63,012 bases of DNA from Coleofasciculus sp. B1-GNL1-01. Its GTDB lineage: Bacteria > Cyanobacteriota > Cyanobacteriia > Cyanobacteriales > Coleofasciculaceae. Position numbers and translations under genes: made by a program. Under the pieces are notes generated by a model that saw only the letters and a program-made list of their open reading frames with translations, ran no database searches and was not told the DNA's origin. The stretch lies in NCBI GenBank assembly GCA_040220235.1, contig JAVJTO010000143.1; one strand, given 5' to 3'. This document shows, one piece after another, positions 991 through 52,615 of this stretch. Within the stretch, counting starts at the first letter, position 1, and the number at the start of each line of letters is the position of its first letter.

Positions 991-2733
991 GTGTCTGACT
1001 ACACCGCCGCCAGTTTTGCCCCCGTACAAGGCTTTATCGAAAAATCCCGCAAACTGCGAGACTTGTATGGCTCATCGCTAATCTTATCCTTTTTAAGTTC
1101 TAAACTGGTGCAAAAGGCAGACTCTTTAGGACTCCTGGTTATCTCCCCCGGATTACCCGATGTCGCTAAAGGAATGCCGAATCGGATTCTGGTACAAGGG
1201 AAATTTGACCGCAATTTAGTTAAAACGACTCTACTCACTGAATGGCAAAGGATACTCACCATTTGCCGAGAGTGGATCGAAGCTAACCTAGGTATCCCCA
1301 AAAATCAGTATTGTTGGTCACAAACTGAAGCCGATCAAGGACATCAGAAAGGAGAATGGGAACGCTGGGGAAGTTATACCTGGGAAATCTTTTGGGGTTA
1401 TGGTGACTCCGTACAAGCCGCCATGGATGACTTGGAACGGCGCAAACTTAAGCGTGATTGGATTGCGATTAACTGGATGGGGGAAAGTTCTAGTTTAACC
1501 GGAACTGATGCGATCGCGTGGCATCAATTGGGTAAGTTTAACCCTAATCCGGGGCGTTCTCTTAGCCAAGGGGAACTAGAGGAGATGGAACTGTTTTATC
1601 GGCGCTTGTCTTGGCTACTGGATAACCCGGATTATCGGGTGGGACAAGAGAGTCTGTCTCTGGATGAGTTGAGAGAAAAGCAAGCCAATCCTGATCAAAT
1701 TGGTCGCTATATTGCCCCCAATGAACGGTTAAGTATTCCAGAATTGGTCAAGCGTTTAGTCACCTACGATAAACTCGCCGATAAAATTGGACTGGATAAA
1801 CTCAAAGCCAAACCCGATGACCCCGAATTTAAGGATATTATTCGCGAACCCGGATATTGGACGGGTTGGTTTATGGGGGATGGTGACAAGGTGGGCGATA
1901 AGTTAAAACTTCTGGCAAGTCGCCCTGATGAACCTCGTAGAGACGGGACTGTGGAAGATCTCCCGCCTACAGCAACGAATCTCAAAAAATTTACCCAGTT
2001 AATTCGAGAATGGGGACAAGAGTTTCAGAAAAACTCTGACCTATTTCCCCAGGGAAAAGGACGAGTGATTTATGCGGGAGGCGATGACTTTCTCGGTGTT
2101 TTATATAGCCCAGAATCCGACCCTCCCACGCCACCGGACAAGGTTAAACCGATTGAAGCGTTGCAGTGGTTATTAACCTTAGAACAGCATTGGCAAGACC
2201 AACAACAAAAGATTAAACATCAGTTAAATCTAGACTTTACCTATAGTGTTGGCTTCGTTTGGGCAGGACATCAAGTTCCCCAACGAGACATTTTACAACA
2301 TTGTCGAGAAGCCGAACAACGGGCAAAAAATCAAGGACGCGATCGCGTGACGATTCGGGTGGTTTTTAATAGCGGTCAATCTGTCCAATGGACTTGTCCC
2401 TGGGACTATTTACACGTCCTCACCCAGTATCGCGATCGCGATGGCAAATCCTGGGGAGAGGAACCGAATTGGAACCATGTTTATAGCGATTGGGCGCAGT
2501 TAAAAGCCCGTCATGGAATTCGCTTAAAGGAAATGGAGGGAATGCCGATTCGGAAAGATGTCGCCTTGGCGATTTTTGACCTGTATTTTAATCAGGCGGG
2601 AGAAAGGTTCAGTCAGGAGAATAAATGGAGTGATATTGCTGGCGATAACACCAATATCGTGATTGTAAATTGGATTAACGACTTGATTCAAGTAGGGTGG
2701 CAATTATGTCGAACAACGGCTTCAAATACTTAA
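991..2733 (+). CDS. cas10: Type III-B CRISPR Cas10/Cmr2, lacking the HD nuclease domain
   Basis: N-terminal PVQGFIEKSRKLRDLYGSSLILS Cmr2 motif, MPNR, FMGDGD and intact IYAGGDD palm motif; only 580 aa with no N-terminal HD domain. Confidence 0.95.
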   Translation: MSDYTAASFAPVQGFIEKSRKLRDLYGSSLILSFLSSKLVQKADSLGLLVISPGLPDVAKGMPNRILVQGKFDRNLVKTTLLTEWQRILTICREWIEANLGIPKNQYCWSQTEADQGHQKGEWERWGSYTWEIFWGYGDSVQAAMDDLERRKLKRDWIAINWMGESSSLTGTDAIAWHQLGKFNPNPGRSLSQGELEEMELFYRRLSWLLDNPDYRVGQESLSLDELREKQANPDQIGRYIAPNERLSIPELVKRLVTYDKLADKIGLDKLKAKPDDPEFKDIIREPGYWTGWFMGDGDKVGDKLKLLASRPDEPRRDGTVEDLPPTATNLKKFTQLIREWGQEFQKNSDLFPQGKGRVIYAGGDDFLGVLYSPESDPPTPPDKVKPIEALQWLLTLEQHWQDQQQKIKHQLNLDFTYSVGFVWAGHQVPQRDILQHCREAEQRAKNQGRDRVTIRVVFNSGQSVQWTCPWDYLHVLTQYRDRDGKSWGEEPNWNHVYSDWAQLKARHGIRLKEMEGMPIRKDVALAIFDLYFNQAGERFSQENKWSDIAGDNTNIVIVNWINDLIQVGWQLCRTTASNT

Positions 2734-3839
2734 TCGCCGTCAAGCCATTAGGCTTCATGTATGGTAGTGCTGGTGCTTTTTTATCCCCAGAAAACCTGGT
2801 CGGGCGATCGGGGACAAAATTCCCACCGGATGCGGCGACAATGGCGGGATTATTTTTTCATGCTAATCAGGAACATCAGTTTTCCAATCATAAAGAGTTA
2901 AGCCATAATCTGGTTGTCGCGGGGGCGTTTTGGGCAGAACGGGATGACCCCAAACACTTTTATGTACCGATTCCTTGGCATAAAGTTATCGCCGAAAAAG
3001 AGGAGGATGAATGGTATTTTGTCAAGAAAAAAGTTGCCCCCTCAGCAGCCAGTGACAGCGATGAAACCAACTGGATTCTGGGTCAGTATCGATGGCATCG
3101 GGATAACAAAGACCTCAATCCCGATTATACCTGGCAATCGATTTATAGCTGGACTTTACCCACCGCCGAACTGAGAAAAGGTAAAGAGGTTGAGACAGCC
3201 CCCTGGGAGTTTATCCCGTTTTTACATCCGCAACTGAAACAGCAGGAACGTCATGTGGTTAACCAAGATGGACTCTTCTTAGAAAATGCCGTACAACTGA
3301 ATCAAGACTATTGCTTAGTCTACCTAGCCAACTATGAACTCCCTAGCGGCTGGTATCGGTTTGGCGGGGAAGGACATTTAGTCGATATTCAGACGCATCC
3401 TCTCTTAGAAACCCACCCCATTAATAAACTCTTGCGCCAAAAGATTCACCATGCTTTTGCCCTAATTACCCCCGGCGTTTGGGGGTCAAATAAACTCTCC
3501 TATCGCTATCCTCACCATCCCAGCTTTCCCCATCAGGGACTAAAAATGCTCACCGATAGACCGATTCCTTACCGTTATCGTATCGGTGAATCTAAACCGG
3601 AAGACGCCGAAAAACAGGACTATGATCCCAGGAAAACGGGACGCTTAAGTCGGGGACGCTACGCCGTTCCCCCTGGAAGCGTTTACGTGTTCAAACATCC
3701 CTTAAATCTGACGTGGTGGGATTTTCCCGATGCATGGTTTCCCCAAGAAGGATTCCCCCTCAAGCATTTAGGATGTGGCTTATGTTTACCCATTGATATC
3801 AAAGGATTACCCCCATGTACCACCAAGGCTACGGCATAA
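2706..3839 (+). CDS. cmr3: Type III-B CRISPR RAMP Cmr3 (Cas5 group)
   Basis: Follows cas10; motifs FPP, YRFGGEGH, ALITPGVWGS, RYAVPPGSVY, LGCGL; ATG at 2706 preferred to GTG at 2697. Confidence 0.9.
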   Translation: MSNNGFKYLIAVKPLGFMYGSAGAFLSPENLVGRSGTKFPPDAATMAGLFFHANQEHQFSNHKELSHNLVVAGAFWAERDDPKHFYVPIPWHKVIAEKEEDEWYFVKKKVAPSAASDSDETNWILGQYRWHRDNKDLNPDYTWQSIYSWTLPTAELRKGKEVETAPWEFIPFLHPQLKQQERHVVNQDGLFLENAVQLNQDYCLVYLANYELPSGWYRFGGEGHLVDIQTHPLLETHPINKLLRQKIHHAFALITPGVWGSNKLSYRYPHHPSFPHQGLKMLTDRPIPYRYRIGESKPEDAEKQDYDPRKTGRLSRGRYAVPPGSVYVFKHPLNLTWWDFPDAWFPQEGFPLKHLGCGLCLPIDIKGLPPCTTKATA

Positions 3840-4810
3840 TTAAAACCCTCGCCCCCCTTTATGTCGGCGCAACCGCTGGCGAAGAAACGGGGAATTTGAA
3901 TCTAATTTTTCGGGATAAAATTACCCAAACGGGAATCATTCCCGGAAGTTCGATTCGGGGACGATTTCGGGCAGATATGCGACTTAAACGTCAAGATTGG
4001 TTAGAGTTAAACCTCAAGGCGGCGAAGGTGGAGATTCCCGATGCAGAGGTGTCAGAGATTGAAGTCGAAAGTAAGGGTACTACCCAAACCATTCCGCGAT
4101 TAGTCTGGTTAGAACAACAGGCGCAAAGAAACAACCTGACGGTTCCGAAGGCGATTAATGATAATTACTGGTATGGGCAAACTGTACAGGGAGGAGACGA
4201 TAATAGTACGACTGAAGCCTTAGTTAAATTTGAATACGCCTCCCTCCTCTGGTTACCTGTATTTTGTCCCGGTCAACCTGTAGTTTGGGTAACTTGTCCC
4301 TGGTTACTCAGACGATATCAAGACATCGCCAAGATTGACGCCGATGTTCCCAAGCCCTACACCGCCGGGAAAGGACTAAAAGGGAGACAAATAGCAGGGC
4401 GCGGTCAAGTTCTCTTCTTTAATTTAGGCTTCGTTGAAGTAGAAGAGGACGAGGACGAGGATTTATCACCTTGGATTCCACCGGGAAGCCAGTTAGAACA
4501 AAACAAATTAGTTGTTCTCAGCGATAACGATATTGCCATGGTGCATGATATGGCATTATATCGTCAAAGTCGGGTCAAACTCTTAGATGAGATGAAGAAA
4601 GTCGAGAATTTTTTCAATGTAGAAGCCTTACCCGAAGCCAGCGTCCTAGTCTTTCCCATCGCCCAGAAGAGAACCGGGTGGAAACCCTTTCAGGAGAAAG
4701 CCTCATTAGAATTATATTTTGGCGGATTAGAATCAATTGGATTTGGTCGCTGTCGGGTATTCATTCAATATCAAACCCCTGACAAAAAACCAATGACGAA
4801 TGACCAATGA
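3815..4810 (+). CDS. cmr4: Type III-B CRISPR RAMP Cmr4 (Cas7 group backbone)
   Basis: IIPGSSIRG, LLWLPV, VWVTCPWLL, E-ALPE and C-terminal G-rich loop FGGLESIGFG. Confidence 0.92.
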   Translation: MYHQGYGIIKTLAPLYVGATAGEETGNLNLIFRDKITQTGIIPGSSIRGRFRADMRLKRQDWLELNLKAAKVEIPDAEVSEIEVESKGTTQTIPRLVWLEQQAQRNNLTVPKAINDNYWYGQTVQGGDDNSTTEALVKFEYASLLWLPVFCPGQPVVWVTCPWLLRRYQDIAKIDADVPKPYTAGKGLKGRQIAGRGQVLFFNLGFVEVEEDEDEDLSPWIPPGSQLEQNKLVVLSDNDIAMVHDMALYRQSRVKLLDEMKKVENFFNVEALPEASVLVFPIAQKRTGWKPFQEKASLELYFGGLESIGFGRCRVFIQYQTPDKKPMTNDQ

Positions 4811-4834
4811 CCAATGACAAAGGACAAATCAACC

Positions 4835-5233
4835 ATGGCTTGGCAATCTTACGAACTCGATCACATCGCCCAAAAATTAGTTCTAGACGCCCGCAGACGC
4901 GACTCTGAATCCCTCAAGCAATCCCACAAAATGCGGTTAGCGGTAGCCTATGGACTAGAACGATTTTGGGGTGAACATTTGCGACTGCAAGGGAAAGAAG
5001 ACAGCAAATCCCACTATTGGAAAGACACCTGGGATGCATTACACAAGCTGATGGAAAAAGCCGGAGTAATCATTCCCAATGATCCGGTAAATCCTAACCA
5101 AGTAGATGAAATTGAAGCCATGTCTGAGAAATTATGGCAACTCTCTATAGAGGATCAACGAGTCGCGATCGCGGTTTTAACTCAACTCTGTGATTGCATT
5201 GTTTGGTGGACACAACGATACAAAGTTAAGTAG
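4835..5233 (+). CDS. cmr5: Type III-B small subunit Cmr5 (Cas11)
   Basis: Small helical protein between cmr4 and cmr6; KMRLAVAYGLERF and W-R-Y C-terminus; ATG at 4835 preferred because the ATG at 4814 lies in a heptamer repeat. Confidence 0.75.
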   Translation: MAWQSYELDHIAQKLVLDARRRDSESLKQSHKMRLAVAYGLERFWGEHLRLQGKEDSKSHYWKDTWDALHKLMEKAGVIIPNDPVNPNQVDEIEAMSEKLWQLSIEDQRVAIAVLTQLCDCIVWWTQRYKVK

Positions 5234-5631
5234 GTGGACATAATTAACGTGAACGGTGAAGATCGTCATTCGTCATTCGTCATTTGTCCTTTGTAAGGGT
5301 TTAAGTCAATCGTAGGGTGCGTTAGCGAAGCGTAACGCACCATGGATAACCACATTTTTACACATCATTTATCGGTGTCAATGTTAGCAATATTCCCCCT
5401 CACCCCCAACCCCTCTCCCACCCTGGGGAGAGGGGAGTCAGAAAAGATAACCAGCTATATTTTTAAGCATGAATCATTCCGGTTCCCCTTCTCCCTTGAT
5501 GGGAGAAGGGGTTAGGGGAAGAGGGTGAACCAATGTTAGTTTAGGATAGAATCAACCGCGCATTTTTAGGGCGCACGTCGGTGCGCCCCTACGATTTCCC
5601 CCCATCATCTAAAACGCCACTGAACCGAATC

Positions 5632-7359
5632 ATGAAACCCATACCCAACGCCTACAAAAAAGTCCCAATGATGTTCCGCGCCCAAATCCTGGGACGCAGC
5701 CAACTCCACTATATTGACCCCCAGAAAAAGAAAGACGGGGAAAAACAAGATGTCCAATATTGGGCAGAAGAATGGATGGAAAAAGCCGAATTTATTCCCC
5801 TCACCCATTCAGACGACAGTCAAAACCCAACCGACCAAACCAAAACCTATCAAATTCGCTGGCGATTCGTTACCAATGGCGGACAAGATGATGGGATGAT
5901 TCGTCCGGTTATTGGGGGTTATGGTATTCCCTTTTATCCCGGTAGTAGTATGAAAGGCGCATTCCGCCAAGCCTGTGAACAAGCCGAACAAGCCGGAATT
6001 ATTCCCCCAAATCGCTGTAATCTGTACTGTGGCGATGAAACCAATTTCACCCCAGGACTTCTCCGCTTTCACGGCGCTTATCCGATTAATGATTGGACTA
6101 AAAATTTAGTTGATTTAGTCCATCCCCAGCAAGGATGGCAAGTGAAAACCCAGAATACAAGAGGGAAGAATCAATTAAGTGGAGAAAGTGCTTATGCGTT
6201 AGTCTCGCTGGTGCAACCGACCTTACGATTTGGTATATCTAGTCGTAAACCTTTATCGACCGAACAATGGCAAGAAATTTGGCAGATTTGGCAATACGCG
6301 ATCGCGACGGGTTTAGGAACCCGAGTCAGTGCCGGATATGGGCAGGTTGAGACAGATTCTCGTTCAATTTTATATCAGGTTCGGGTCAAGGGACAAGGAC
6401 AAGCCGCTAAGTTAATTGATGGGACGGGAGAATTTCGTCCGAATATCTTTCGCGCCAGTTTACGGGGTCATGCGTTACGCTTATTTGGCGGCTTAACCAA
6501 TGCCAAAACAGCGGAAGCCTTGGTGGAACAATTGTTTGGTGGCGTGGAAGGAAATGGAAGCGTAGGACTCTTAAAGCTAGGGTTTCAAACGGAGGAGTTA
6601 CGGTTAGGGACGTTTGGTCGAAATGAGTATGAACAGCCCACCTATAATGTAGAAGGAGATATAATTTGGTCATTAACTCGCCCCCTCCCCGATGATCAAC
6701 ACGCCGCCTTACAAAACCTCGTCACCGATTTAATCTGGTTTGCTATGGTGTTTGGCGGATTTGGCAAGTCTTGGCGACGGGCGGATCATCGCTTATTTTA
6801 TGATGATGATGAGTATGAAAAGTTAATTGGTTGTCATTGGCAATGGGCGGGAAAAATTGACCAAAAAAATGCCTTTCGCGTCCGGAGTCCTAAAACAATC
6901 GGCAAGTTTATTAATTCGGTCTTAGACACAGCGAAAACCTGGATGAAATTACAAGGAAAAATCCCCAATCCCAATCATCCTGCCAATTGGCGCGAATCCT
7001 GGCATCCCTCTCGCGTCCAAGTCTGGGGACGATTGGCAAAAAATCGGGATGAATGTGTGGCGATTTATTGGTTACATAAACGCTATCAAGAAGGCATTCG
7101 TCGCGGCGAAACTGACAAAAGTATTAAACGGACATCGGTAACCGGAGAACTGGGTCAAATTGGTCGCTTGTGGCATCGAATGTATCCACCGAAACTCTTC
7201 TGGATTAAGAAAGAGGGAAAACTTGAACCGAAATCAATGAATCGGTTTATTGAGTTATTAACTCTGTTTCCGGATGAGTCACCGGAATGTAAGAAGTTTG
7301 TCGCATTTCTTCAGCAAAAACCAAAGGGATTTGAATTATTGTGGGGAGGAAAGGAATAA
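5632..7359 (+). CDS. cmr6: Cmr6-Cmr1 fusion RAMP protein
   Basis: N-terminal Cmr6 RAMP (GIPFYPGSSMKGAFR, GLGTRVSAGYG) followed by a second Cmr1-like RAMP (FRASLRGHALRLFGG, FGGFGKSWRR); ATG at 5632 preferred. Confidence 0.85.
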   Translation: MKPIPNAYKKVPMMFRAQILGRSQLHYIDPQKKKDGEKQDVQYWAEEWMEKAEFIPLTHSDDSQNPTDQTKTYQIRWRFVTNGGQDDGMIRPVIGGYGIPFYPGSSMKGAFRQACEQAEQAGIIPPNRCNLYCGDETNFTPGLLRFHGAYPINDWTKNLVDLVHPQQGWQVKTQNTRGKNQLSGESAYALVSLVQPTLRFGISSRKPLSTEQWQEIWQIWQYAIATGLGTRVSAGYGQVETDSRSILYQVRVKGQGQAAKLIDGTGEFRPNIFRASLRGHALRLFGGLTNAKTAEALVEQLFGGVEGNGSVGLLKLGFQTEELRLGTFGRNEYEQPTYNVEGDIIWSLTRPLPDDQHAALQNLVTDLIWFAMVFGGFGKSWRRADHRLFYDDDEYEKLIGCHWQWAGKIDQKNAFRVRSPKTIGKFINSVLDTAKTWMKLQGKIPNPNHPANWRESWHPSRVQVWGRLAKNRDECVAIYWLHKRYQEGIRRGETDKSIKRTSVTGELGQIGRLWHRMYPPKLFWIKKEGKLEPKSMNRFIELLTLFPDESPECKKFVAFLQQKPKGFELLWGGKE

Positions 7360-9053
7360 TGGCAATTTGGATTGTAACCATTGGCAGTAGTGATGTGCAA
7401 TTAGACAGTGACAAAATTAGTAAGAAAAAGGGACGAAGGGAAAAGCAGCGCAGTGATAAGATGTGGACTAATTGGTATAAGGATGAGATTCTGGGCGAAT
7501 TCCACAATATTAAATTTGAACTCAAGCAAATCGATAACCATGTCACTCAACCTTATCGGATTGAACCCAGGGTATTGGGAACGGTTTATCAGTATCATTC
7601 CCCCCAGATACAGGAACAGATTTGGTCGTATTTAAATTTTCCCCTGTTGGATACATTTGTAAACCGATTAAAAGCAGAAACCGATCAGTTAGATCAAATT
7701 ATCGTCCTGTTAACCGATCAATCCCAGATTTTCTCCGATTACCAAACCCAGCACCAAATTACCTGTCCCTATTGGCAAGATACCCATCCATTACAGCCTA
7801 TTTTAGCCCGATATTTTCAGGGGGAGGATAAGTTTCCAAAAACCCCCTGTGAATGGATTTACCTAGCGCCGAACTCTAATGATCCAGGATTAGATGAATG
7901 GGATTATGTTCTCGATTTAGTCCGAAAGGAATTAGATTCTCTCCCTTTTACCGCCAACCCTAATCCGGCGACGAGTCAAACCGTTTATGTTAGTCATCAA
8001 GCCAGCACTCCAGCCATTTCTTCAGCGGTTCAGTTTATGAGTCTCGCCCGATTTGGCAAGCGGGTACAATTTTTAGTCAGTAATGAATATCACCTAGAAC
8101 GTCCAGCGAATATTATTAGCAATTCCCAATATCTGCGGGGAATTCAGGTACAACAGGCGAAGGGATTAATTCAATCCGGAACTCCGGGTGCGGCGTTACA
8201 CTTGTTAGAATTAGCAGAACTTAAGGGAAGTTTAGAGGCGTCGGTGGTGGCTGAGTTGGAAAAACTGGTGGATTTTTTCAATCTGAATCGTTCCCTGGCG
8301 GATAAGTCAAGTGAATTTGACCTTAAAGCAGCGACGGCGCGAATTGTTGATGGGATTGCCTTGATTGAACGATTATTTGAGCAAGAGAATTATCTGCCTG
8401 GAATTGCGCTATTGGCGGCGGCGCAAGAGACGTTTTTGCGGTGTGCGATTATGACGGAAATTCAGGGACGTTCAGTTTCGTTATCGATTAATGGAACTCA
8501 GCAACGTTTTCCGGCGGAGGATTTAATTCAATGGCTAAGGAGAGGGTTACAGTTTGTTTCTACGGATGATTTGAAGCATTATTGGTCTGTATCGGGTTCG
8601 AGTAAGGAAGAAGTGAATAAAACGATTAAGACGCTGAAGCTAGAGACATTAAAGCAATTACAGTTTCCCATTGATGACAACCGATTCAAGCGTCAACCCA
8701 ACCAAATCGGCAAGAATGAATTTATGCTCAAATGGCTGTGTCATCTCCGGTCAGATTTCCAGCCGTGGAAGGTATTGCACTGGTCATGTATTCAGAAGAA
8801 CGAAGCGGGAGAACATGATGATGATATCCGCAACCAATTGATGCATAATTTGCAAGGCATGAAGCCGGAGGATGTGGTCAAGTATTTATTAGGGAATCAA
8901 GAGAGAGATATATCGGTTATTCAGGCGTATCAGACTGAAGTGAAACCGCAATTTATGGCGGCGATTCGTCTGTGTGGTTTGCCATTTACTGAGCCGAAGT
9001 TAACAGAGAGGCTGCAAGGTGTGGCAGATGCGATGCGGATTAAATTATCTTAG
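7359..9053 (+). CDS. Csm6-like CARF-HEPN ancillary ribonuclease (putative cOA-activated effector)
   Basis: Start overlaps cmr6 stop (TAATG); N-terminal WIVTIGSSDV, WQDT and VSHQASTPAISSA resemble Csm6-type CARF motifs; C-terminal RNQLMH fits the HEPN R-X4-H motif. Confidence 0.7.
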   Translation: MAIWIVTIGSSDVQLDSDKISKKKGRREKQRSDKMWTNWYKDEILGEFHNIKFELKQIDNHVTQPYRIEPRVLGTVYQYHSPQIQEQIWSYLNFPLLDTFVNRLKAETDQLDQIIVLLTDQSQIFSDYQTQHQITCPYWQDTHPLQPILARYFQGEDKFPKTPCEWIYLAPNSNDPGLDEWDYVLDLVRKELDSLPFTANPNPATSQTVYVSHQASTPAISSAVQFMSLARFGKRVQFLVSNEYHLERPANIISNSQYLRGIQVQQAKGLIQSGTPGAALHLLELAELKGSLEASVVAELEKLVDFFNLNRSLADKSSEFDLKAATARIVDGIALIERLFEQENYLPGIALLAAAQETFLRCAIMTEIQGRSVSLSINGTQQRFPAEDLIQWLRRGLQFVSTDDLKHYWSVSGSSKEEVNKTIKTLKLETLKQLQFPIDDNRFKRQPNQIGKNEFMLKWLCHLRSDFQPWKVLHWSCIQKNEAGEHDDDIRNQLMHNLQGMKPEDVVKYLLGNQERDISVIQAYQTEVKPQFMAAIRLCGLPFTEPKLTERLQGVADAMRIKLS

Positions 9054-9087: not shown

Positions 9088-9476
9088 GGGGCGCACCGAT
9101 GTGTATTGCGGTCAACTTAAGGTTAACCCCTCACCCCCAGTCCCTCTCCCAGCCCTCACCCCCAGCCCCTCTCCCAGCCCTCACCCCCAGCCCCTCTCCC
9201 AAGCTTGGGAGAGGGGAGTAAGAGGGGAGTAAGAGGGGAGTAAGAGGGGAGTAAGAGGGGAGCAAGAGGGGAGCAAGAAAATCCGGTTCCCCTTCTCCCA
9301 CCCCCCTCGTTCCCCCCTACAAGAGGGGGGAGGACAGAGGATGCTATCGCTTTTGTTTCAAGGGAGAAGGGGTTAGGGGATGAGGGGGAAATGTCGAGGA
9401 GTAGATAGACACAGCTTAAAATATTACCAGCATTAGTTTTTCACATTAAGTTGACACGGATGACCGACGTGCGCCC
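9088..9476. mobile_element. MITE-like element with GTCAACTTAA...TTAAGTTGAC terminal inverted repeats and internal tandem repeats
   Basis: TIRs at 9111-9120 and 9446-9455 inside a GGGCGCAC...GTGCGCCC REP; homologous in inverted orientation to 15616-15949. Confidence 0.65.
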
Positions 9477-9626: not shown

Positions 9627-9901
9627 TTTTCTCAGGCTGGCGATTAATGATATAATCTCGATCAAACGCTAATTTAACTGAACCTTGAAACGTGAATAAG
9701 ATAGCGGCGAAATCGACCAATCGACACACCTCGCCCAATCGCTGAAACCCTATGTTTTTCGTTGAGGTGTGTCGATGCCTTACAGGGAGCGGGTTTGAGG
9801 GCTGTGTCTGGCTCAATTTAGGCAGGATATGTTAGAGTTTTAGCGAGGTGTGTCGATTCGGGCGCTGAAACCCAGTCTCCGTAAGGCGTCCTCAGCGAAC
9901 T
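9627..9901 (+). promoter_or_regulatory. CRISPR leader 1 with extended -10 (TGATATAAT 9648-9656) and boxA-like GAACCTTGAAAC (9680-9691)
   Basis: Directly precedes the first repeat; near-identical to 12082-12356. Confidence 0.85.
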
Positions 9902-10591
9902 CTTCCCACTCGCTGGGAAAACAAGTTGAATGGAAACGAAGGTGTAATCTGTCGCAAAAAACAGTTTCTCAAAGGGCTTCCCACTCGCTGGGAAAACAAG
10001 TTGAATGGAAACTTGCCTCAGGATTGTACTTGAAGTTGAATTTAACCTCAAGCTTCCCACTCGCTGGGAAAACAAGTTGAATGGAAACGTTGAACGCCGT
10101 TGTTGCACAACGGATTGGAGCATACTTCCCACTCGCTGGGAAAACAAGTTGAATGGAAACTTATCGCTAGAGCTGCTAATAGCAAACTCGGAAGTCTTCC
10201 CACTCGCTGGGAAAACAAGTTGAATGGAAACACTAGCTAAAAAGCTACTACTCCATCCCTACTGGCCTTCCCACTCGCTGGGAAAACAAGTTGAATGGAA
10301 ACTCACAGTCACTTGGATACAATATTTGTACCCAAACTTCCCACTCGCTGGGAAAACAAGTTGAATGGAAACGTAAATGTAACTCCTGTGGCTTGGTCTA
10401 CAATTAGCTTCCCACTCGCTGGGAAAACAAGTTGAATGGAAACCTTCGTGCTAGTAAAGTTTCTCCGGAAAATTTCAAGATTATCTTCCCACTCGCTGGG
10501 AAAACAAGTTGAATGGAAACTGTTTTCTCCTTCTTGTTAACTTTAGGATCGTAAAACCTTCCCACTCGCTGGGAAAACAAGTTGAATAAAC
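9902..10591 (+). CRISPR. CRISPR array 1: 10 repeats (last degenerate), 9 spacers of 34-41 nt; repeat CTTCCCACTCGCTGGGAAAACAAGTTGAATGGAAAC
   Basis: Repeats start at 9902, 9977, 10053, 10125, 10196, 10267, 10337, 10408, 10485, 10558 (last lacks GG). Orientation from leader side, 3' GAAAC end, degenerate distal repeat and terminator. Repeat stem TTCCCA/TGGGAA. Confidence 0.99.
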
Positions 10592-10595
10592 AAAA

Positions 10596-10625
10596 AAACC
10601 CTGGCAAGACCAGGGTTTATTATTA
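10596..10625 (+). terminator. Probable intrinsic terminator of array 1
   Basis: AAACCCTGG-caaga-CCAGGGTTT hairpin followed by an AT-rich tract right after the last repeat. Confidence 0.65.
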
Positions 10626-10658
10626 TGTAGGGATAAAACCAACCTTGGACAGTCGCCC

Positions 10659-11882
10659 ATGCCCAAGAAACCCCAACCCCACCGTTACATCGATCGCACT
10701 TCCTTCGAGAGACTCTTAATCCTCATCGCTACGCTGATCCAGCATCCCGGCGTCGGGAGTCGCCAACCCTTAGAACACACCCCAAACCGCACTCACCACA
10801 ACGCCTTAACCCCCCTCCAAAGCCAAATTCGCCAGGTGGCTAAATCCCTGGGTATTTCATATCCCGATCGCTACCCATCAATCGGTACCCTCCGCAAAGA
10901 CTTAGAAACCCTGCGAAATTACGGCATACTAGACCACAGAAAATATCGCTGGGGATACTACCTAGGAACCGGAGTCATGAATCGAGATGAACTCAAAGTC
11001 GCCTTCAACGCCCTCCACTCCCAAGCCATGTATCAAGGCGATCCCCAAATCCGCAAGATCTACTACACCCTAGAAAAGCGACTACGGGGATTAGAACTAG
11101 ACGGAAACACCGATATATCCTATCCTGTCCGCGCCTATATGAATCGCCCGATTATCCAAACTGACCCCGAAGTCATGGCGGAAAAAGGCACAACTCGCCA
11201 CACCTTGTTTCACTGCTTAGACAGGATTGAGGACGCGATCGCCACAGGTCAATTAATCGAACTTTATCGCCTCCGAGAACCGTACCACAACAACATCGGA
11301 TACTTACAGATTTACCCTCTACAATTGTTCTATCATGACATTGCTTGGTATTTACTTTACGAAACCGCCAGCAATCCGAATTTATACCAACCCGACGAAA
11401 TCCAGCACCTAGAAGTCGAACGACTTGATCGGTTAAAAAATTACTGTAAAATCCTTGATTCCCCCGGACGAGGACAAAACGCCCAATTCGAGAGTCTCAA
11501 ACTCGCCCAGAAACTCTTTAAAACCGGATGGGGAATAAATCTGGGAACCCCAGAGGAACAATACAACGAGCGAAAAAACCAGGAATCCTTTGAACGAATC
11601 ACCGTGCGATTCTTCCCCCCATGCACTCAATTTATCCGAGAAGGCGAATGTCGCCATAACAACCAAAAAATTACATCCAAAAAAGACCAAGATGGACAAG
11701 AGTACATCGACTATAGTATCAAACTGCCCCGTCGTTCACTCCCGGAATTCTGCCGTTGGGTTTACCGTCATATTGGATGCAGCCAATTTATCTCACCCCC
11801 CGAATTAGTGGAAAAACACCGAAACGCTATTCAAGCCGCCGCTAACCGTTATAGCGCTACGCGAAGCGGGAATAAGGAATAG
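10659..11882 (+). CDS. HTH-WYL-WCX domain transcriptional regulator, CRISPR-associated
   Basis: N-terminal wHTH (TLRKDLETLRNYGIL), WYL signature YPLQLFYHDIAWYLL...ERLDRL, C-terminal WCX-like region (ISPPELVE). Confidence 0.92.
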   Translation: MPKKPQPHRYIDRTSFERLLILIATLIQHPGVGSRQPLEHTPNRTHHNALTPLQSQIRQVAKSLGISYPDRYPSIGTLRKDLETLRNYGILDHRKYRWGYYLGTGVMNRDELKVAFNALHSQAMYQGDPQIRKIYYTLEKRLRGLELDGNTDISYPVRAYMNRPIIQTDPEVMAEKGTTRHTLFHCLDRIEDAIATGQLIELYRLREPYHNNIGYLQIYPLQLFYHDIAWYLLYETASNPNLYQPDEIQHLEVERLDRLKNYCKILDSPGRGQNAQFESLKLAQKLFKTGWGINLGTPEEQYNERKNQESFERITVRFFPPCTQFIREGECRHNNQKITSKKDQDGQEYIDYSIKLPRRSLPEFCRWVYRHIGCSQFISPPELVEKHRNAIQAAANRYSATRSGNKE

Positions 11883-12081
11883 GGAAACGGAATATATTTC
11901 TTATTTGGAGGGGCTTTGATGCTCCCCCTTCCGTGCAATAAAAGCGAAGCATCCTCTGTCCTCCCTCCTCGCAGGGGGGAATGAGGGGGGTTGGGAAGGG
12001 GGCTGGGGGGTTAGGTTTTTCCAATTCACCATTGGTATCAGCCATAAATTGTCCTCGATGTTCAATAACGGGATGATCCGG

Positions 12082-12356
12082 TTTTCTCAGGCTGGCAATT
12101 AATGATATAATCTCGATGAAACGCTAATTTAACTGAACCTTGAAAAGCGAATAAAATAGCGGCGAAATCGACCAATCGACACACCTCGGCAAATCGCTGA
12201 AACCCTATATTTTTCGTTGAGGTGTGTCGATGCCTTACAGGGAGAGGGTTTGAGGGGTGTGTCTGGCTCAATTTAGGCGGGATATGTTAGAGTTTTAGCG
12301 AGGTGTGTCGATTCGGCGGCTGAAACCCAGTCTCCGTAAGGCGTCCTCAGCGAACT
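12082..12356 (+). promoter_or_regulatory. CRISPR leader 2 with extended -10 (TGATATAAT 12103-12111) and boxA GAACCTTGAAAA (12135-12146)
   Basis: 275-bp near-identical copy of leader 1 directly before array 2. Confidence 0.85.
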
Positions 12357-13126
12357 CTTCCCACTCGCTGGGAAAACAAGTTGAATGGAAACAAAAACAT
12401 TGTCTTCCTGAGCTTCATCATTTTTCTCATCTTCCCACTCGCTGGGAAAACAAGTTGAATGGAAACCAGGTAGAGAAAACAACCAACGATTAATTTTGTC
12501 GGCTTCCCACTCGCTGGGAAAACAAGTTGAATGGAAACACTAAAGCCTCAAGCTGGGCTTTATTCAGAGCAACTTCCCACTCGCTGGGAAAACAAGTTGA
12601 ATGGAAACTATTTCCATGTATATTGGAACCATCTCCAGGGTGGAGACTGACTTCCCACTCGCTGGGAAAACAAGTTGAATGGAAACTCAGTGTCAGTTCA
12701 CACTGAATTTTAGGACTACTTCCCACTCGCTGGGAAAACAAGTTGAATGGAAACGGATTAGTCCGTAGGAAATCTACAGACTCTTGGGCTTGCTTCCCAC
12801 TCGCTGGGAAAACAAGTTGAATGGAAACTCTAATCCAAGAGGTTTGAGCTCAGTTAGTACTGAGCTTCCCACTCGCTGGGAAAACAAGTTGAATGGAAAC
12901 AAGCGACATTCTAGAGACCTTGTGCGCGAAGCCACAGACTCTTCCCACTCGCTGGGAAAACAAGTTGAATGGAAACCAGTCGGTTGTAACCGCTGCCCGT
13001 TTACATCGTAGACTTCCCACTCGCTGGGAAAACAAGTTGAATGGAAACGAGGCCGTCGATTCTTCTTGCTCGTGAGTCTCGTGAGTCAGACTTCCCACTC
13101 GCTGGGAAAACAAGTTGAATGGAAAC
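12357..13126 (+). CRISPR. CRISPR array 2: 11 identical repeats, 10 spacers of 32-42 nt; same repeat as array 1
   Basis: Repeats start at 12357, 12431, 12503, 12573, 12651, 12719, 12793, 12865, 12941, 13013, 13091; no spacer shared with array 1. Confidence 0.99.
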
Positions 13127-13361
13127 AGGGTACACACCCTGTAACCTAAAAATCAGACAAAAAAAAGGGCACGGCATTGCCGTGCCCCTACCTTTCTCTA
13201 TCAAATCAACCTATTGAATTTTGCGATATCCTCCACCCAACCTGCTTAAACCTTAATATCAGCACTGAATAAATATAAAGCTAAAGTTCCTCAACTACGA
13301 ACTAAGGCTAAAATTCCCCAACTACGAACGACAAACAACCCACCCAACGATATAATAGACA

Positions 13362-14730: not shown

Positions 14731-14802
14731 TGGTCAGGATTCTCACCTCTAGACAAAACCCACCTTAGGTTAACTATTTATTATAAAACCGTTAGATAAT
14801 TG

Positions 14803-15510
14803 TAGGGGCGGGTTTAGGGATTTAATTTTGGCATCCACCGATAACCTATCAACAAAACCCGCCCTGGATTAAGGGTTAATGATAGAATCTTTTGCGTTGC
14901 AGATATTCAACAGCAAATTGATACCGCACTTTGCTCTGCTATGCGGTACATTGTCGATCCCCCTAAATCCCATAAGCAAAAAAAGCGAAGCATCCTTTGG
15001 TCTCCCCCATGAAACAAAAAGCGAAGCATCCTTAGTCCTCCCCCCTCTTGTAGGGGGGAATGAGGGGGGTAGGGGGACGGAAGGGGGATCTAAAAAGGGA
15101 AGAGGGGGATCTGAAGGGGGACTTTGATCTACTGTACTTTATTACAGCGCAAAGCTCTGTAAATAATCATTCACTTGTCGGGGCGGTTTTAGGGATTTAA
15201 TTTTGGCATTTACCAATAACCTATAAACAAAACCCGCCCTGGATTAAGGGTTAATAATAGAATCCTTTTCATTGCAGATATTCAACAGCAAATTAATAAA
15301 TAATCATTCACTTGTCGGGGCGGGTTTAGGAATTTAATTTTGGCATTTACCGATAACCTATAAACAAAACCCGCCCTGGGTTAACGGTTAATGATAGAAT
15401 CTTTTTCGTTGCAGATTGTCGAGAAGTAACCTCCTTTGTTGCTCAAGGGCGGGTTTTGTTGGGAACTTATTCCTAGATAATTCAATTAAACGGCTAAACC
15501 CGCCCCTACA
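14803..15510. repeat. Three tandem ~120-140-bp REP units (GGGCGGGTTTAG...CAAAACCCGCCC) plus a related inverted copy, interrupted by another repeat element
   Basis: Copies begin near 14803, 15178 and 15316; same family at ~35810, ~36913 and ~39146. Confidence 0.85.
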
Positions 15511-49089: not shown

Positions 49090-50811
49090 CTATTCAGTTT
49101 CCGGCGAATAATTGCCAAAATAAACGCCATAGCCGGGAATTTCTACCACCCCGTTATACCGTCGGTTGGTAAAATCAGACTCATCGGCTCGATAACAGTT
49201 GGGGTAGGGCGATAAATCATAATGCACAGGCATTGGACTCAAATTAAACAGACAAATCAGGTTTTGTTCGTCACATTGGCGAGTAAACCCGAGTAACGGT
49301 TCCTCTGTCTCCAATAGGGTTAAATCCCCCTTGAGTAACGCTGGCTGTTTCTTGCGCCAATGAATCAAACGGCGATATTTATTCAACAGAGACATCCGTT
49401 CGTGATCCTGTTGATCAATCGCTTGGTCGCGATGTTCATCGGGAATGGGTAGCCAGGGTTCTTCTGCTGTGGTAAAGCCAGCATTGGGCGCATCTTTCTG
49501 CCAAGGGAGAGGGGTGCGTGACCCATCTCGACCCACAATTGACGGATACCCCGCTAGTCCAAAGGGGTCTTGCATTTTTTCAAAGGGAATCGTGGCTTGG
49601 GTTAAGCCGAGTTCATCCCCTTGATAAATACAGCACCCTCCCCGCAAGGAAAGCTGGAGCGCGATAAATAGATGATCAAAGACGGCGTGGGTAAATTTAT
49701 CATCAATCAGAAACTTCAGCCAGCGACTTTTCAGTCGGGGAAAATCATGGGTTCCTCCTGTCCAGCAGATGACGCCATCTTGGAAATGGCTTTCTACCTG
49801 CTCAATCATGTCCCGCACTCGCTTATAACTCAACGGTTCATCGTGCATCAAGGCTGAGTTATAGGCTGTATGTAAGCGTTTCTCTCCTTTAACATATTCA
49901 CTGGACGTAACTACCGTATCTTCAGCCGAACTAATTTCAGCTAATGTCATTGTTCCGGGATATTGATCCATCAATTCCCGAATTGGTTCGAGAAATTCTA
50001 AGGTTTCCGGTTGGCAGAAATTATATTTATTCCATTGGGAGAAAAAGGGATCGTGAGCATCTGCCCCGGCTGGACGTTTCCTATTTTTGGGTCGAGGTGG
50101 ATTATCCCGCAGTTGGCGGTCGTGGGTAAAGAAGTTTACCACATCTAGGCGGAAACCATCGACTCCCATATCTAGCCAAAACTTGGCGACATCCAGAATG
50201 GCTTGTCTAACTTCTGGGTTATACCAGTTTAAATCCGGCTGTTCGGCGAGGAAATTGTGCAGGTAATACTGTTCTCGTTGAGGGTCCCATGTCCACGCAC
50301 TTCCGCCAAAGGTGGAAAGCCAGTTGGTGGGGGGTGTCCCATCGGGTTTGGCATCTGCCCAGACATACCAGTCGGCTTTGGGATTGTCGTGACTACTGCG
50401 ACTCTCTAGAAACCAGGGGTGTTCGTTTGAGGTGTGGTTCCAGACTTGATCAATGAGTACCTTTAACCCCAAATCATGTGCCTTATTCAGGAGATTCTGG
50501 AAGTCTTCCATCGTGCCGAACATGGGTTCGATCGCACGATAGTCAGAAATATCATAACCAAAGTCCTTCATCGGGGACTTGAAAAACGGGGAAACCCAAA
50601 CCGCATCAACGCGAAGGGAGGCGATATAGTCTAGTTTTTGCATGATCCCCTTCAGATCACCGATACCGTCGCCGTTACTATCCATGAAGCTGCGGGGATA
50701 GACCTGATAGATAACGGCACTACGCCACCACTCATGGGATTGTTGATGTTGATCGGGTTTTTTAACCGGGTCTGTGGTAGATGTGGGGTTGAGGGTGGAT
50801 TGTTCACTCAT
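49090..50811 (-). CDS. GH13 alpha-glucosidase (copy 1)
   Basis: YQVYPRSF.D, GFRLDVVN, LAEI, THDFPR, RDGSRTP. Confidence 0.95.
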   Translation of the reverse strand: MSEQSTLNPTSTTDPVKKPDQHQQSHEWWRSAVIYQVYPRSFMDSNGDGIGDLKGIMQKLDYIASLRVDAVWVSPFFKSPMKDFGYDISDYRAIEPMFGTMEDFQNLLNKAHDLGLKVLIDQVWNHTSNEHPWFLESRSSHDNPKADWYVWADAKPDGTPPTNWLSTFGGSAWTWDPQREQYYLHNFLAEQPDLNWYNPEVRQAILDVAKFWLDMGVDGFRLDVVNFFTHDRQLRDNPPRPKNRKRPAGADAHDPFFSQWNKYNFCQPETLEFLEPIRELMDQYPGTMTLAEISSAEDTVVTSSEYVKGEKRLHTAYNSALMHDEPLSYKRVRDMIEQVESHFQDGVICWTGGTHDFPRLKSRWLKFLIDDKFTHAVFDHLFIALQLSLRGGCCIYQGDELGLTQATIPFEKMQDPFGLAGYPSIVGRDGSRTPLPWQKDAPNAGFTTAEEPWLPIPDEHRDQAIDQQDHERMSLLNKYRRLIHWRKKQPALLKGDLTLLETEEPLLGFTRQCDEQNLICLFNLSPMPVHYDLSPYPNCYRADESDFTNRRYNGVVEIPGYGVYFGNYSPETE

Positions 50812-50935
50812 ACGCGATTAATTTTATCGTTACCTCTTGTCGCTTTACTCTGTACTTCTGTACTAAGGCTCTAAGTACAGCCTGACATAAATTTTTGGCG
50901 AATGGAGAAATTCTTGACATCCCGCCAACGTTACA

Positions 50936-52615
50936 TTAGATTATCTCTCCAAAAAAGACACCATAAGCAGGAAGTTTGAGGGTATCGCCTTGTCTATCGG
51001 CCGTAAACCCTGAATCTGTGATGTCTTTGACTTGCGGATAATCGGCTAAATCATAGTGAGTGGGTACATCACCCCAATTAAATAGACACAGTAAACACTG
51101 TTGTTCACCGTCGCGGATAAACGCCAAAATTGGTTCCTCTGTCTGTAAAATCTTCGTCTCGCCTTGGATGAGGGCGGGTTGCTGTTTGCGCCAATGCAAC
51201 AGACGCCGCCAGGTATTTAATAAGGAATTGGAGTCTTTGTGTTGAATATCAACAGCATAAGGGATATGCTCCTCTGGTATGGGTAACCACGACTGTTTTG
51301 CCTCAGTGAAGCCTGCATTCGCCGCATCTGCTTGCCAAGGCATGGGGGTGCGGGAGGCATCTCGTCCGGGGATATCGGGGTAAAGGGCTTTGCCAAAGGA
51401 GTCTTTCATCTGTTGGGCGGGGATATCGTCGGGAATCTCGGCATCGGTTAACCCTAATTCATCCCCCTGATACAGACAAAAGGCTCCGGGTAACGAGAGG
51501 AGCATTGCCGCGATCGCATGATAAAATTCCTCTGGATAAGGATTACCCTGGGCATCTTTTCCCGTCCAACGGGATTTCAAGCGACGGTAATCATGATTTC
51601 CGGCTATCCAACAGTTCCCCCCACTGGAGAAATGGTGTTCTATCCGTTCCAAGGTTTCACGCATCTGAGTGGCGCTGAAGGGGTTCTGGAAAAATAGCGA
51701 ACTGTTGTACACCAGATGTAATCGTTCGCTTCCGGTAACATAATCGCTGGAGATCGCGATCGCATCTTCCGACAGTGTAACTTCTCCTAACGTAATCGCC
51801 TCATAACAATCAACATGTTGGCGAATTTGTTGCAGAAGCTGGTAATTTTGGGCATCACATATTTGATTGTGGAACAGTTGCTTGGCTAAGGGATTAGCCG
51901 AGAGGATACCATCCGGGGGTGACGCATCCTCTGGACGCGGCGGGTTATCTTGTAATTTGGGGTCATGAATCAAGAAATTGACCGCATCTAAGCGGAATCC
52001 ATCCACACCCCGTTCTAACCAAAACGTGGCACATTTGAAAATGGCATCTACGACTTGGGGATTGTGTAGATTTAGTTTGGGCTGAAACTCTAAGAAGTCA
52101 TAAAAATAAAATTGTTCTCGCTGAGGTGCCCATACCCAAGCACTTTTTCCCAAAAACACCGATAACCAATTATTCGGTGGAGAACCATCTTCCTGGGGAT
52201 CTGCCCAAACATACCAATCGGCTTTTGGATTATCCCGACTTTGGCGACTTTCTAAGAACCAAGGATGCTGATCTGAGGTATGATTCCACACCTGATCAAT
52301 AATTACTTTTAAGCCTAAATTATGAGCATCTGCCAAAAGCTGATCAAAATCCTCCAAAGTACCAAAATCTGGATCAATGGTATACATATCTGTCACGTCA
52401 TAGCCAAAATCATCCATCGGCGATTCAAATAATGGGCATAACCAGATAGCATCCACACCCAGGGCGGTAATGTAATCCAGATGAGCAATAATTCCTGGAA
52501 TATCACCGATACCATCGCCATTACTATCGTAAAAGCTGCGAGGATAAATCTGATAGATAATGGCATTCCGCCACCAATCAATCAATTGAGGATTTTTACA
52601 GTTGACGTTATTCAT
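50936..52615 (-). CDS. GH13 alpha-glucosidase (copy 2)
   Basis: YQIYPRSF, GFRLDAVN, LGEV, NHDYRR; start at 52615. Confidence 0.95.
   Translation of the reverse strand: MNNVNCKNPQLIDWWRNAIIYQIYPRSFYDSNGDGIGDIPGIIAHLDYITALGVDAIWLCPLFESPMDDFGYDVTDMYTIDPDFGTLEDFDQLLADAHNLGLKVIIDQVWNHTSDQHPWFLESRQSRDNPKADWYVWADPQEDGSPPNNWLSVFLGKSAWVWAPQREQFYFYDFLEFQPKLNLHNPQVVDAIFKCATFWLERGVDGFRLDAVNFLIHDPKLQDNPPRPEDASPPDGILSANPLAKQLFHNQICDAQNYQLLQQIRQHVDCYEAITLGEVTLSEDAIAISSDYVTGSERLHLVYNSSLFFQNPFSATQMRETLERIEHHFSSGGNCWIAGNHDYRRLKSRWTGKDAQGNPYPEEFYHAIAAMLLSLPGAFCLYQGDELGLTDAEIPDDIPAQQMKDSFGKALYPDIPGRDASRTPMPWQADAANAGFTEAKQSWLPIPEEHIPYAVDIQHKDSNSLLNTWRRLLHWRKQQPALIQGETKILQTEEPILAFIRDGEQQCLLCLFNWGDVPTHYDLADYPQVKDITDSGFTADRQGDTLKLPAYGVFFGEII

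Follow-up and report, generated by a model that had tools for sequence, protein, structure and literature searches.

The window, by which we mean the whole stretch of 63,012 nt analysed here from Coleofasciculus sp. B1-GNL1-01, carries a type III-B (Cmr) gene set (cas10/cmr2, cmr3, cmr4, cmr5 and cmr6, assigned by profile searches), csx1 and two CRISPR arrays (Table 1). A motif scan of cas10/cmr2 located a GDD-type palm motif at residue 363 and no HD dipeptide. No Cmr1 match indicating a separate cmr1 was obtained in the seven ORFs scanned. Neither was cas6 found among these ORFs of the locus, the contig ending 990 nt upstream of cas10; cas6-like genes lie elsewhere in the assembly, on contigs C51, C59 and C85. 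The repeat of the window, in which an AU-rich stretch comes after a 5' hairpin, presumably resembles the CRISPR3 repeat of Synechocystis. The absence of cas6 from the locus is a feature shared with subtype III-Bv, and in the available text of PMC12464536 and PMC8682795 it is likewise seen at the Cmr operon of CRISPR3 in Synechocystis PCC 6803. Unlike that system, as described there, the window locus lacks cas1 and cas2 and has leaders of the RT class.

Table 1. Features of the CRISPR-Cas locus in the window
Feature	Position	Strand	Evidence
cas10/cmr2, type III-B variant	991..2733	+	PADLOC Cas10b E=5e-200; Pfam Cmr2_N + palm2
cmr3	2697..3839	+	Pfam/PADLOC profile matches
cmr4	3815..4810	+	profile matches including PADLOC
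cmr5	4814..5233	+	PADLOC E=8e-65
cmr6, long, 592 aa	5581..7359	+	PADLOC Cmr6 E=8e-204
csx1, predicted CARF-HEPN effector nuclease	7341..9053	+	PADLOC E=3e-179
Leader 1, RT+Cas1 array class	9717..9901	+	143.7 bits, profile of RT-array leaders
CRISPR array 1: 10 repeats of 36 nt, last degenerate; 9 spacers	9902..10593	+	
Spacer, target strand forms 9-bp helix with one G-U, z -2.2	10013..10052	-	
Spacer, target strand forms 11-bp helix, z -2.6	10303..10336	-	
Spacer without structure	10373..10407	+	
9-bp hairpin, terminator-like, 3' of array 1	10596..10618	+	
WYL/WCX-domain regulator, between arrays 1 and 2	10659..11882	+	profile matches
Leader 2, RT+Cas1 array class as far as leader-repeat junction	12172..12356	+	160.1 bits
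CRISPR array 2: 11 repeats, 10 spacers	12357..13126	+	
Spacer, perfect 7-bp stem, target z -2.9	12687..12718	.	
Spacer, target strand forms 9-bp helix with one G-U, z -4.1	12755..12792	-	
9-bp hairpin, terminator-like, 3' of array 2	13167..13187	+	

Hairpins in the 19 spacers of the window

The sequence-only reading had pointed out perfect stems in five spacers, and all of them are present at their coordinates (10089-10124, 12539-12572, 12609-12650, 12687-12718 and 12829-12864). It had also described three stems broken by an A-C mismatch (10029-10052, 10303-10336 and 12755-12792), and on the reverse complement these indeed become continuous helices that include G-U, of 9, 11 and 9 bp, respectively. 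Its chance rate of about one stem per 19 spacers was too low, as the computed rate is 1.3-1.8 per 19, and the hairpins that it called "bulged or shorter" (10161, 10232 and 12977) turned out to be ordinary (z -0.75, +0.04 and -0.47). As controls, 1000 dinucleotide shuffles and also genome fragments were used. Perfect stems of at least 6 bp were found in 5/19 spacers versus 1.80 in shuffles (p=0.024) and 1.29 in genome fragments (p=0.014), and stems of at least 7 bp in 3/19 versus 0.42 in shuffles (p=0.008). When G-U pairs were allowed, helices of at least 9 bp occurred in 3/19 spacers on the target strand versus 0.36 in shuffles (p=0.005) and in 0/19 on the crRNA strand versus 0.44; at an 8-bp cut-off the strands were alike (3/19 versus 2/19).

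Compared with shuffles, the folding z of the spacers was -0.83 on the target strand (p=0.019) and -0.38 on the crRNA strand (p=0.09), and the proposed asymmetry in favour of the target strand was not significant in the 19 spacers (Wilcoxon p=0.087). Just four of the 19 had z below -2, and five had positive z. Since the finding had been chosen for its hairpins, the p-values of the window alone overstate the case; the hairpin excess is genuine but modest.

Leader class and folding across related arrays

Both window arrays are hybrids in which a type III-B-variant repeat is joined to the leader of RT+Cas1 arrays. Leader 1 lies inside a 300-nt block whose second copy, at 12073-12372, is 95% identical, and leader 2, compared with the leaders of 12 RT-type arrays, is 76-89% identical to each of them. 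Leaders of the same repeat family that adjoin plain Cas1 scored at most 16 bits versus 144 and 160 for the window leaders, which have the leader-repeat junction in common with RT-array leaders. An initial reading that gave chance 60%, with the repeat family served by plain Cas1, was dropped on this leader test.

In the pooled comparison, from which the window spacers were left out, the mean target z was -0.62 for spacers of RT-type repeats (n=799) and -0.71 for hybrid arrays combining the window-type repeat with an RT leader (n=170), versus -0.18 for the window-type repeat behind other leaders (n=233), -0.07 for type I spacers (n=254) and -0.11 for the host coding baseline (n=500). Hybrid and other-leader arrays of the same repeat differed at p=2e-4. 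In a forward test, the junction alone was used to find arrays, and the 98 new spacers that they yielded had z -0.88 (p=5e-8). Within one relative, G174, the RT arrays had z from -0.43 to -0.80 (327 spacers) versus -0.04 (103) and 0.01 (18) for type I, and on one contig of G009 the RT-leader arrays had z -2.5 (4 spacers) and -1.8 (3) versus -0.37 (7) and -0.24 (22) behind other leaders. The folding excess behind the RT leader is thus class-wide. Counting against an RNA-fed reading, the orthologous arrays at the nearly identical locus of G017 are unstructured (z +0.07, n=21).

The 799 RT-type spacers showed a small strand difference (z -0.62 on the target versus -0.50 on the crRNA strand; paired t p=0.007, Wilcoxon 0.04). 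The G-U asymmetry proposed from the window was weak at this level, with helices of at least 9 bp in 40 versus 33 spacers (discordant 35:28, p=0.45); helices of at least 10 bp numbered 19 versus 4.7 expected on the target strand and 10 versus 5.7 expected on the crRNA strand. The excess was uniform, with no correlation between neighbours (p=0.29) and no difference across 30 arrays (p=0.83), which fits a mechanism rather than epidemics. Several sources of the stems were considered and rejected: infection episodes, as no autocorrelation was seen along arrays; 3'-exonuclease stalling, as the helices are no closer to the 3' end, contrary to the simple expectation; and snap-back synthesis, as the stems are imperfect, fall within open frames and show no tie to one end.

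Probable RNA origin and target searches

No RT-Cas1 was found elsewhere in the genome, where the sequence-only reading had advised looking for it: the only Cas1 belongs to the type I locus on contig C51, and none of the eight RT matches in the assembly (172 contigs) adjoins a cas1. In the family, only 6/18 genomes with the junction had this RT, versus 6/34 without it; like the missing RT-Cas1, this counts against filling by such a module. The RT+Cas1 module is present on a conjugative Nostoc plasmid, and the closest relative, G017, has the module without its RT part.

Adenine at position -3 from the target 3' end had a frequency of 0.46, 0.47 and 0.51 in three RT groups versus 0.33 and 0.24 in controls. 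This RT-leader peak matches the cuts of cyanobacterial RNase E, whose signature is A at -3 according to the available text of PMC8682795; in that of PMC12464536, RNase E is the enzyme of crRNA maturation in subtype III-Bv. Moreover, one G174 spacer is antisense to the host tRNA-Lys and includes the CCA that is missing from the gene, plus four A. Marinomonas RT-Cas1 takes up RNA fragments whose short 3' tails are A-rich and non-coded (10.1101/2023.09.01.555893), and such tails fit the four extra A; that mechanism predicts A at the last positions, not a -3 peak, and the accessible part of that report mentions no structure bias. The tRNA-CCA spacer and A at -3 indicate RNA as the source.

In the window itself, the own-genome search found no spacer among the 19 that could be derived from RNA only. 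A at -3 was seen in 7/19 spacers, and the end score of 0.01 +/- 0.17 falls between the RT and control classes, an unclear signature that speaks against the RNA-fed reading. The target strand looked coding in 13/19 window spacers and 109/163 of the RT class (benchmark 336/500). The suggested combination of RNA origin and structure excess is supported for the class, by the leader scores, the 98 new spacers, the pooled z, A at -3 and the tRNA-CCA spacer, and not by an RT-Cas1 in this genome. Leader class, folding, A at -3 and tRNA-CCA together argue that the RT-leader class is probably RNA-fed and that the window arrays probably belong to it.

Targets had been hoped for in RNA or DNA collections, and none was matched by the window spacers in any collection searched. 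The best spacer match in the own genome was 18 nt, 50,697 phage records gave no spacer match (best E 0.7), matches in plasmids were confined to repeats, leader and WYL gene, and the fetched loci and spacers of relatives held no window-spacer target. In IMG/VR, searched with the cores of 2/19 spacers, one had five matches of 21-25/35 and the other had none; one spacer of the 19 was compared with metagenome contigs, and the best of its 30 matches (28/35, in a tape-measure-like ORF) was judged to be chance. Three G174 motifs gave 0, 0 and 1 match in IMG/VR, the single one being discarded as chance since its flanks differ. No spacer came near the gathering score in Rfam, hammerhead and HDV-motif ribozymes were not in excess among spacers, and levivirus replicase/maturation motifs occurred in 2/799, 0/170, 0/51 and 0/19 spacers versus the 3.4-4.4% expected from MS2 and AP205 windows. 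Single spacer peptides, which may resemble levivirus coat or maturation proteins, were set aside. Six sequencing runs contained just 0.04-0.06 of the words; the four that were aligned gave leaders, repeats and the WYL gene of relatives, with no protospacer contig among those listed. A candidate lead is a contig of one RNA run (X2) that matches up to 10406, within the unstructured spacer at 10373..10407, and continues into an RT-type repeat. The type I array of G174 (103 spacers) likewise had no plasmid or family-genome protospacer, and as this control is also unmatched, the target negatives of the window say little.

A similar situation was described for the RT-Cas1-linked III-B arrays of Arthrospira platensis, whose spacers were untraceable (Silas et al. 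2017, PMC5513706). In both cases a cyanobacterial type III, RT-linked spacer pool is nearly matchless in DNA and RNA viromes. Unlike in Arthrospira, no RT or cas1 lies at the window locus and no RT-Cas1 in the assembly, the link being made via the leader; the folding excess, A at -3 and hybrid arrays are found here and are not part of the Arthrospira account in its available text.

Explanations of the hairpin excess

The reading that we prefer, with a probability of roughly 45%, is that the hybrid arrays were filled in trans from RNA by an RT module since lost, and that the hairpin excess is mainly a bias of capture or survival. The Cmr system next to the arrays, a III-B variant, would have contributed the repeat, and the leader in front of it would have come from a mobile RT+Cas1+Cas2 module; this module, now absent from the assembly, would have filled both arrays. 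The material captured may have been decay fragments of about 35 nt from foreign protein-coding transcripts, many of them cut by RNase E and stored antisense, so that Cmr/Csx1 could act on the transcript. Fragments with an internal hairpin would outlast nucleases or suit the integrase better. Most of the source RNA would have been transcribed from unsampled DNA phages and plasmids, and structured RNAs would account for some of it. What we infer here is that the module acted in trans, that RNase E made the cuts, that survival was biased and what the sources were. In a toy cut-and-survive model, host mRNA gave no excess in run 1 (z -0.03 versus -0.10) and z -0.23 to -0.30 versus +0.04 in run 2; survival bias would therefore explain at most half of the effect. 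The available reports on laboratory RT-Cas1 uptake describe AT-rich or start/stop-codon bias, not hairpins, which also speaks against a bias.

The sequence-only reading had left the choice between a structured RNA replicon and hairpin-biased uptake, and with no target matched the latter fits at least as well. Nevertheless, a structured RNA invader is possible, if doubtful. Widened to the class, this idea holds that the same RT module took up RNA and that the hairpins reflect locally structured, protein-coding RNA replicons of filamentous cyanobacteria, the candidates being RNA viruses or RdRp-less RNA elements. In line with this view, folding in the class (mean z -0.62 on the target and -0.50 on the crRNA strand) is intermediate between that of host mRNA (-0.11) and that of MS2 (-0.95/-0.72) and stronger than that of the dsDNA cyanophage A-4L (z -0.13); the small target-strand advantage and the part of the excess that the toy model leaves agree with it too. 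Furthermore, 1022 RT-leader spacers included 30 related pairs, many being diverged copies of the same hairpin motifs, versus 0/552 in controls; overlapping G174 pairs had mismatches in 7/14 and opposite strands in 4/14, and the single motif checked in the host was found just in the array. A precedent exists in Roseiflexus RS-1, where the spacers of RNA-fed RT-type III-B arrays are directed against RNA parasites, namely partiti-like viruses and a 315-nt circular RNA (10.1101/2022.02.15.480533; 10.1101/2022.07.19.500677); their spacer targets were matched, in contrast to those of the window, and the accessible parts of both studies do not mention cyanobacteria. The levivirus motif, ribozyme, Rfam and IMG/VR results (two window spacers and three G174 motifs) argue against replicons, as does the lack of clustering along arrays and of heterogeneity among them. 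With only 14 overlaps in 53,301 G174 pairs, the source pool must be much larger than a few small genomes could provide, and, as AP205 (z -0.15) and phi6 L (z -0.41) illustrate, an RNA virus cannot be recognised by its folding z. That a mobile RT+Cas1 module lent its leader to other type III arrays and that their spacers record a large unseen family of RNA replicons, cut by RNase E, is put forward tentatively.

It is unlikely that chance produced the window excess, in which case the 19 spacers would be ordinary, DNA-derived and chosen post hoc, and the class pattern would be real but not applicable here. The p-values of 0.005-0.024 on a hairpin-selected finding, the source genome without RT-Cas1, the unstructured G017 locus and the unclear end signature would agree with it, but the choice made on hairpins had no bearing on the leader class, from which folding in the 98 unselected spacers could be predicted, the excess is present in each array separately (mean target-strand z -0.83 in array 1 and -0.79 in array 2), and the window spacers match the RT class (p=0.48) and depart from plain-leader arrays (p=0.008). 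Quite improbable, in our view, is a DNA origin in which type III Cas1-Cas2 favours hairpin-forming single-stranded DNA. Such uptake, at single-strand origins, oriT and attenuators, is described in the available text on Streptococcus thermophilus type III-A (PMC8860593), whose spacers also come from hairpin-forming sequence; long helices are about twofold enriched on both strands with little asymmetry, and many hybrid-array genomes are without an RT of this type. That system uses plain Cas1-Cas2, whereas the excess here is in RT-leader arrays: arrays with the window-type repeat and other leaders, several of them adjoining plain type III Cas1, gave -0.04 (173 spacers) in addition to the pooled value above, and such arrays were low even on the G009 contig shared with RT-leader arrays. 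The tRNA-CCA spacer and A at -3 again indicate RNA. Taking the uptake bias and RNA replicons together, it is likely that the window spacers are RNA-derived.

The origin of RT-linked cyanobacterial spacers has been a standing question since 2017 (PMC5513706), and no cyanobacterium is named as a host in the RNA-virome studies consulted. RNA-fed arrays can be recognised by leader class, folding excess and A at -3, also where the RT gene is absent, and with these three marks about 1000 collected spacers become usable as probes for RNA-only contigs. The hybrid leader-repeat design suggests that one adaptation module serves several type III effectors. If the excess is an uptake bias, as we prefer, RNase E decay would be linked to CRISPR adaptation, which is relevant to RNA-recording tools. 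Should the sources be responsible instead, unknown RNA parasites of cyanobacteria would be indicated, and the "enigmatic" RT-linked spacers would have been drawn from cyanobacterial RNA replicons.

Hybrid anatomy of the window arrays

Downstream (3') of csx1, which closes a cmr operon, the window carries two arrays, each behind a copy of one leader; array 1 has 9 spacers and array 2 has 10, and a WYL gene separates array 1 from the second leader copy. Ordinary DNA uptake was the first reading of these arrays, since no RT was detected beside cas1 of the window's repeat family in the five relatives where the family has its own cas1, and RT+Cas1 loci have other repeats. This reading was set aside after comparison of the leaders. 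Over their last ~185 nt the window leaders share 76-89% identity with those of all 12 RT-type arrays compared. A profile built from 13 RT-array leaders gives them 144 and 160 bits up to the junction; RT-type leaders outside the training set score 77-278 bits (15 for a single incomplete array) and plain-Cas1 leaders of the window's repeat family at most 16. The window arrays are therefore hybrids, in which an RT-class leader precedes the repeat of the Cmr system itself.

The leader-repeat junction recurs in records named Coleofasciculus, Symploca, Allocoleopsis, Microcoleus, Lyngbya and similar. The closest relative, G017, has an equivalent locus at 95-99% identity, yet the two have 0 spacers in common. 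Two further repeat families also follow an RT-class leader, so leader swapping extends beyond the window repeat.

Features of the window, of other contigs (C) of the same assembly (G000; 8.66 Mb, 172 contigs) and of loci (L) in relatives
Location	Feature	Details
Window 991-9053	cmr2-3-4-5-6 and csx1	5' end of window
Window 9127-9286, 14754-15435	Short repeats (tandem; REP-like inverted)	Typical of filamentous cyanobacteria
Window 10373-10407	Spacer	RNA-run X2 contig matches window to 10406
Window 49090-54454	Three paralogous ORFs in tandem	559-578 aa; repeat families D3, D5, D8, D17
C47:113037-113422	Orphan array, two spacers	Leader resembles window's
C51:163856-167388	Divergent 652-aa RT with 424-aa neighbour	Weak RVT_1 match; no CRISPR link; possibly a defence-type RT
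C91:29703-29892	Window-like leader	Merely a partial repeat
C101:12579-22331	Second type III-B operon	One-spacer mini-arrays between genes; plain-type leaders
L097:13894	RT-class leader, further repeat family	z -0.86, n=6
L095:10328	RT-class leader, further repeat family	z -2.5, n=3
L149:12860-12898 (G174)	Spacer antisense to tRNA-Lys	
L175:1462-1533	Host tRNA-Lys	No encoded CCA
L151:10590-16071 (G145)	Tiling of one ~75-nt stretch by four successive spacers	Two differ by a 2-nt indel

Folding excess and leader class

The sequence-only reading held that the window spacers are enriched in hairpins, with G-U pairs on the target strand, and this observation is partly confirmed. All the stems it named are present. 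A perfect stem of 6 bp or more is present in 5/19 spacers against 1.8 in shuffles (p=0.024). Helices that reach 9 bp when G-U pairs are allowed were found in three of the 19 targets against 0.36 (p=0.005) and in 0/19 crRNAs. The mean folding z values against dinucleotide shuffles (target -0.83, crRNA strand -0.38; negative means more structure) do not differ significantly in these 19 spacers (p=0.087). Most of the folding signal lies in four spacers, and five fold less than their own shuffles. The G-U argument is weak, as both strands of RT-class spacers have about twice the expected number of long helices, and the hairpin statistics of the window are weak by themselves, the finding having been chosen for hairpins.

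The excess goes with leader class. In the first set, mean z was -0.57 for the RT-type repeat (163 spacers) and -0.70 for a second RT class (51), against -0.04 for type I-D (119) and -0.13 for the window-type repeat (239). RT-type arrays of other families replicated this (-0.67, n=467, p=6 × 10−19), and a prospective test on hybrids located by junction alone gave -0.88 (98 new spacers, p=5 × 10−8). Pooled with the window excluded, z was -0.62 for the RT-type repeat (799 spacers, 327 of them from the single genome G174, and kin not being independent) and -0.71 for hybrids (170), against -0.18 for the window-type repeat with other leaders (233) and -0.07 for type I (254). Spacers outside 28-50 nt, containing N or duplicated were dropped; the pooled groups also exclude three cut-leader hybrid loci (L240, L241, L245), as well as two arrays that lacked leader data (32 spacers, z +0.36). 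The RT class includes 58 spacers assigned by their RT-type variant repeat, and the RT-type arrays of G177 and G086, where RT+Cas1 of matching type was not found, were retained.

Negative z was seen in 27/27 RT-type arrays with at least five spacers, in four of five further ones and then in 2/2 on a Nostoc plasmid, and the contrast between RT-leader and other arrays persists within single genomes. Exceptions are the orthologous G017 arrays (+0.07, n=21) and a single RT array (0.0, n=13), together with the type I-B spacers of the first set (-0.73, n=14). The window spacers resemble the RT class (p=0.48) and differ from plain-leader arrays (p=0.008).

Signs of RNA uptake and the source of the spacers

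Besides its class-wide folding excess, the RT-leader class shows an end signature and, in a relative, one RNA-only spacer. The latter, in G174, is complementary to the 3' portion of the host tRNA-Lys and runs on with CCA, which the gene lacks, and four A; the match ends at the identical base in 16 of 20 family genomes, those listing it. This spacer is natural evidence of mature-RNA uptake, with a phage tRNA with encoded CCA as a possible alternative source. In G086 and G292 the tRNA-Lys gene shares a contig with an RT-type array. At -3 from the target 3' end the RT groups have adenine frequencies of 0.46, 0.47 and 0.51, a peak against 0.33 and 0.24 in controls (interior ~0.28); the window spacers, with 7/19, are uninformative here. 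For cyanobacterial RNase E, PMC8682795 describes A at -3/-4 together with U at +2, and A-tailing by RT-Cas1 could add to the peak. The G145 tiling spacers point to an uptake burst that drew on a single type of molecule. The X2 contig runs on into an RT-type repeat, which suggests an RT-type array holding an overlapping spacer, a candidate lead.

The spacer targets look protein-coding, the target strand scoring better in 109/163 RT-class spacers, as in 336/500 true coding fragments (window 13/19). In calibration, z was -0.95 for MS2, -0.41 for phi6 L and -0.15 for AP205 among RNA phages, -0.38 for M13, -0.23 for phiX174 and -0.13 for cyanophage A-4L among DNA phages, and -0.11 for host mRNA (n=500; smaller samples +0.04 to -0.30). 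Several spacers in three RT-type arrays of G174 (L149, L150, L270) are diverged copies (78-96% identity) of shared hairpin motifs, some on opposite strands; one such motif, searched in the host, is present solely in the array, and three gave no credible match in IMG/VR.

The magnitude of the excess, the slight lead of the target strand and these motif families would fit a structured RNA invader, whose replicons the hairpins would reflect. We consider this source possible, though less likely than not. The alternative that the excess may be a bias of uptake rather than a property of the source is favoured by the uniformity of 30 arrays, with no clustering and few overlaps, and by the lack of enrichment in levivirus or ribozyme motifs among the spacers. 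A toy bias model yields at most half of the effect, a shortfall that speaks for the replicons. The invader interpretation is supported in part, by the signs of RNA uptake and the class-level excess; the weak G-U argument and the lack of RT-Cas1 in G000 count against it.

The RT module and its possible action in trans

In G000 the sole Cas1 is that of the type I locus on C51, and no cas1 adjoins any of the eight RT matches. The RT module is mobile: it is present on a conjugative Nostoc plasmid and in 12/52 family genomes, among them 3/8 same-genus relatives. It is weakly associated with the hybrid junction, being present in 6/18 family genomes that have the junction and in 6/34 that lack it. 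In G017 the RT part is gone; L106 retains the RT-type cas1 and lacks most of the upstream gene as well. The hybrid arrays of G017 are unstructured, its RT-type arrays structured still (-0.98, -0.90).

Loading of crRNAs and activation of effectors are established biology of type III systems. We propose that the RT module would recognise leader and junction and write RNA fragments, probably supplied by host RNases, into arrays with a foreign repeat; the crRNAs would then be loaded into Cmr and Csx1 activated. The module may subsequently have been lost from G000, or be unassembled. For type VI arrays, uptake in trans has been described. The literature drawn on for the analysis as a whole comprises PMC10715143, PMC8860593, PMC12014289, PMC11662929, PMC13096302, PMC8682795, PMC12464536, PMC13501316, PMC10828431, PMC5513706 and the preprints 10.1101/2023.09.01.555893, 10.1101/2022.07.19.500677 and 10.1101/2022.02.15.480533. 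Among titles and abstract openings, with subscription papers mostly outside coverage, there was no report of natural RT-linked spacers with folding excess or an RNase E signature, nor of RT leaders on foreign repeats. The value of the finding lies in a class-wide signature and in a test of what cyanobacterial RT-CRISPR remembers.
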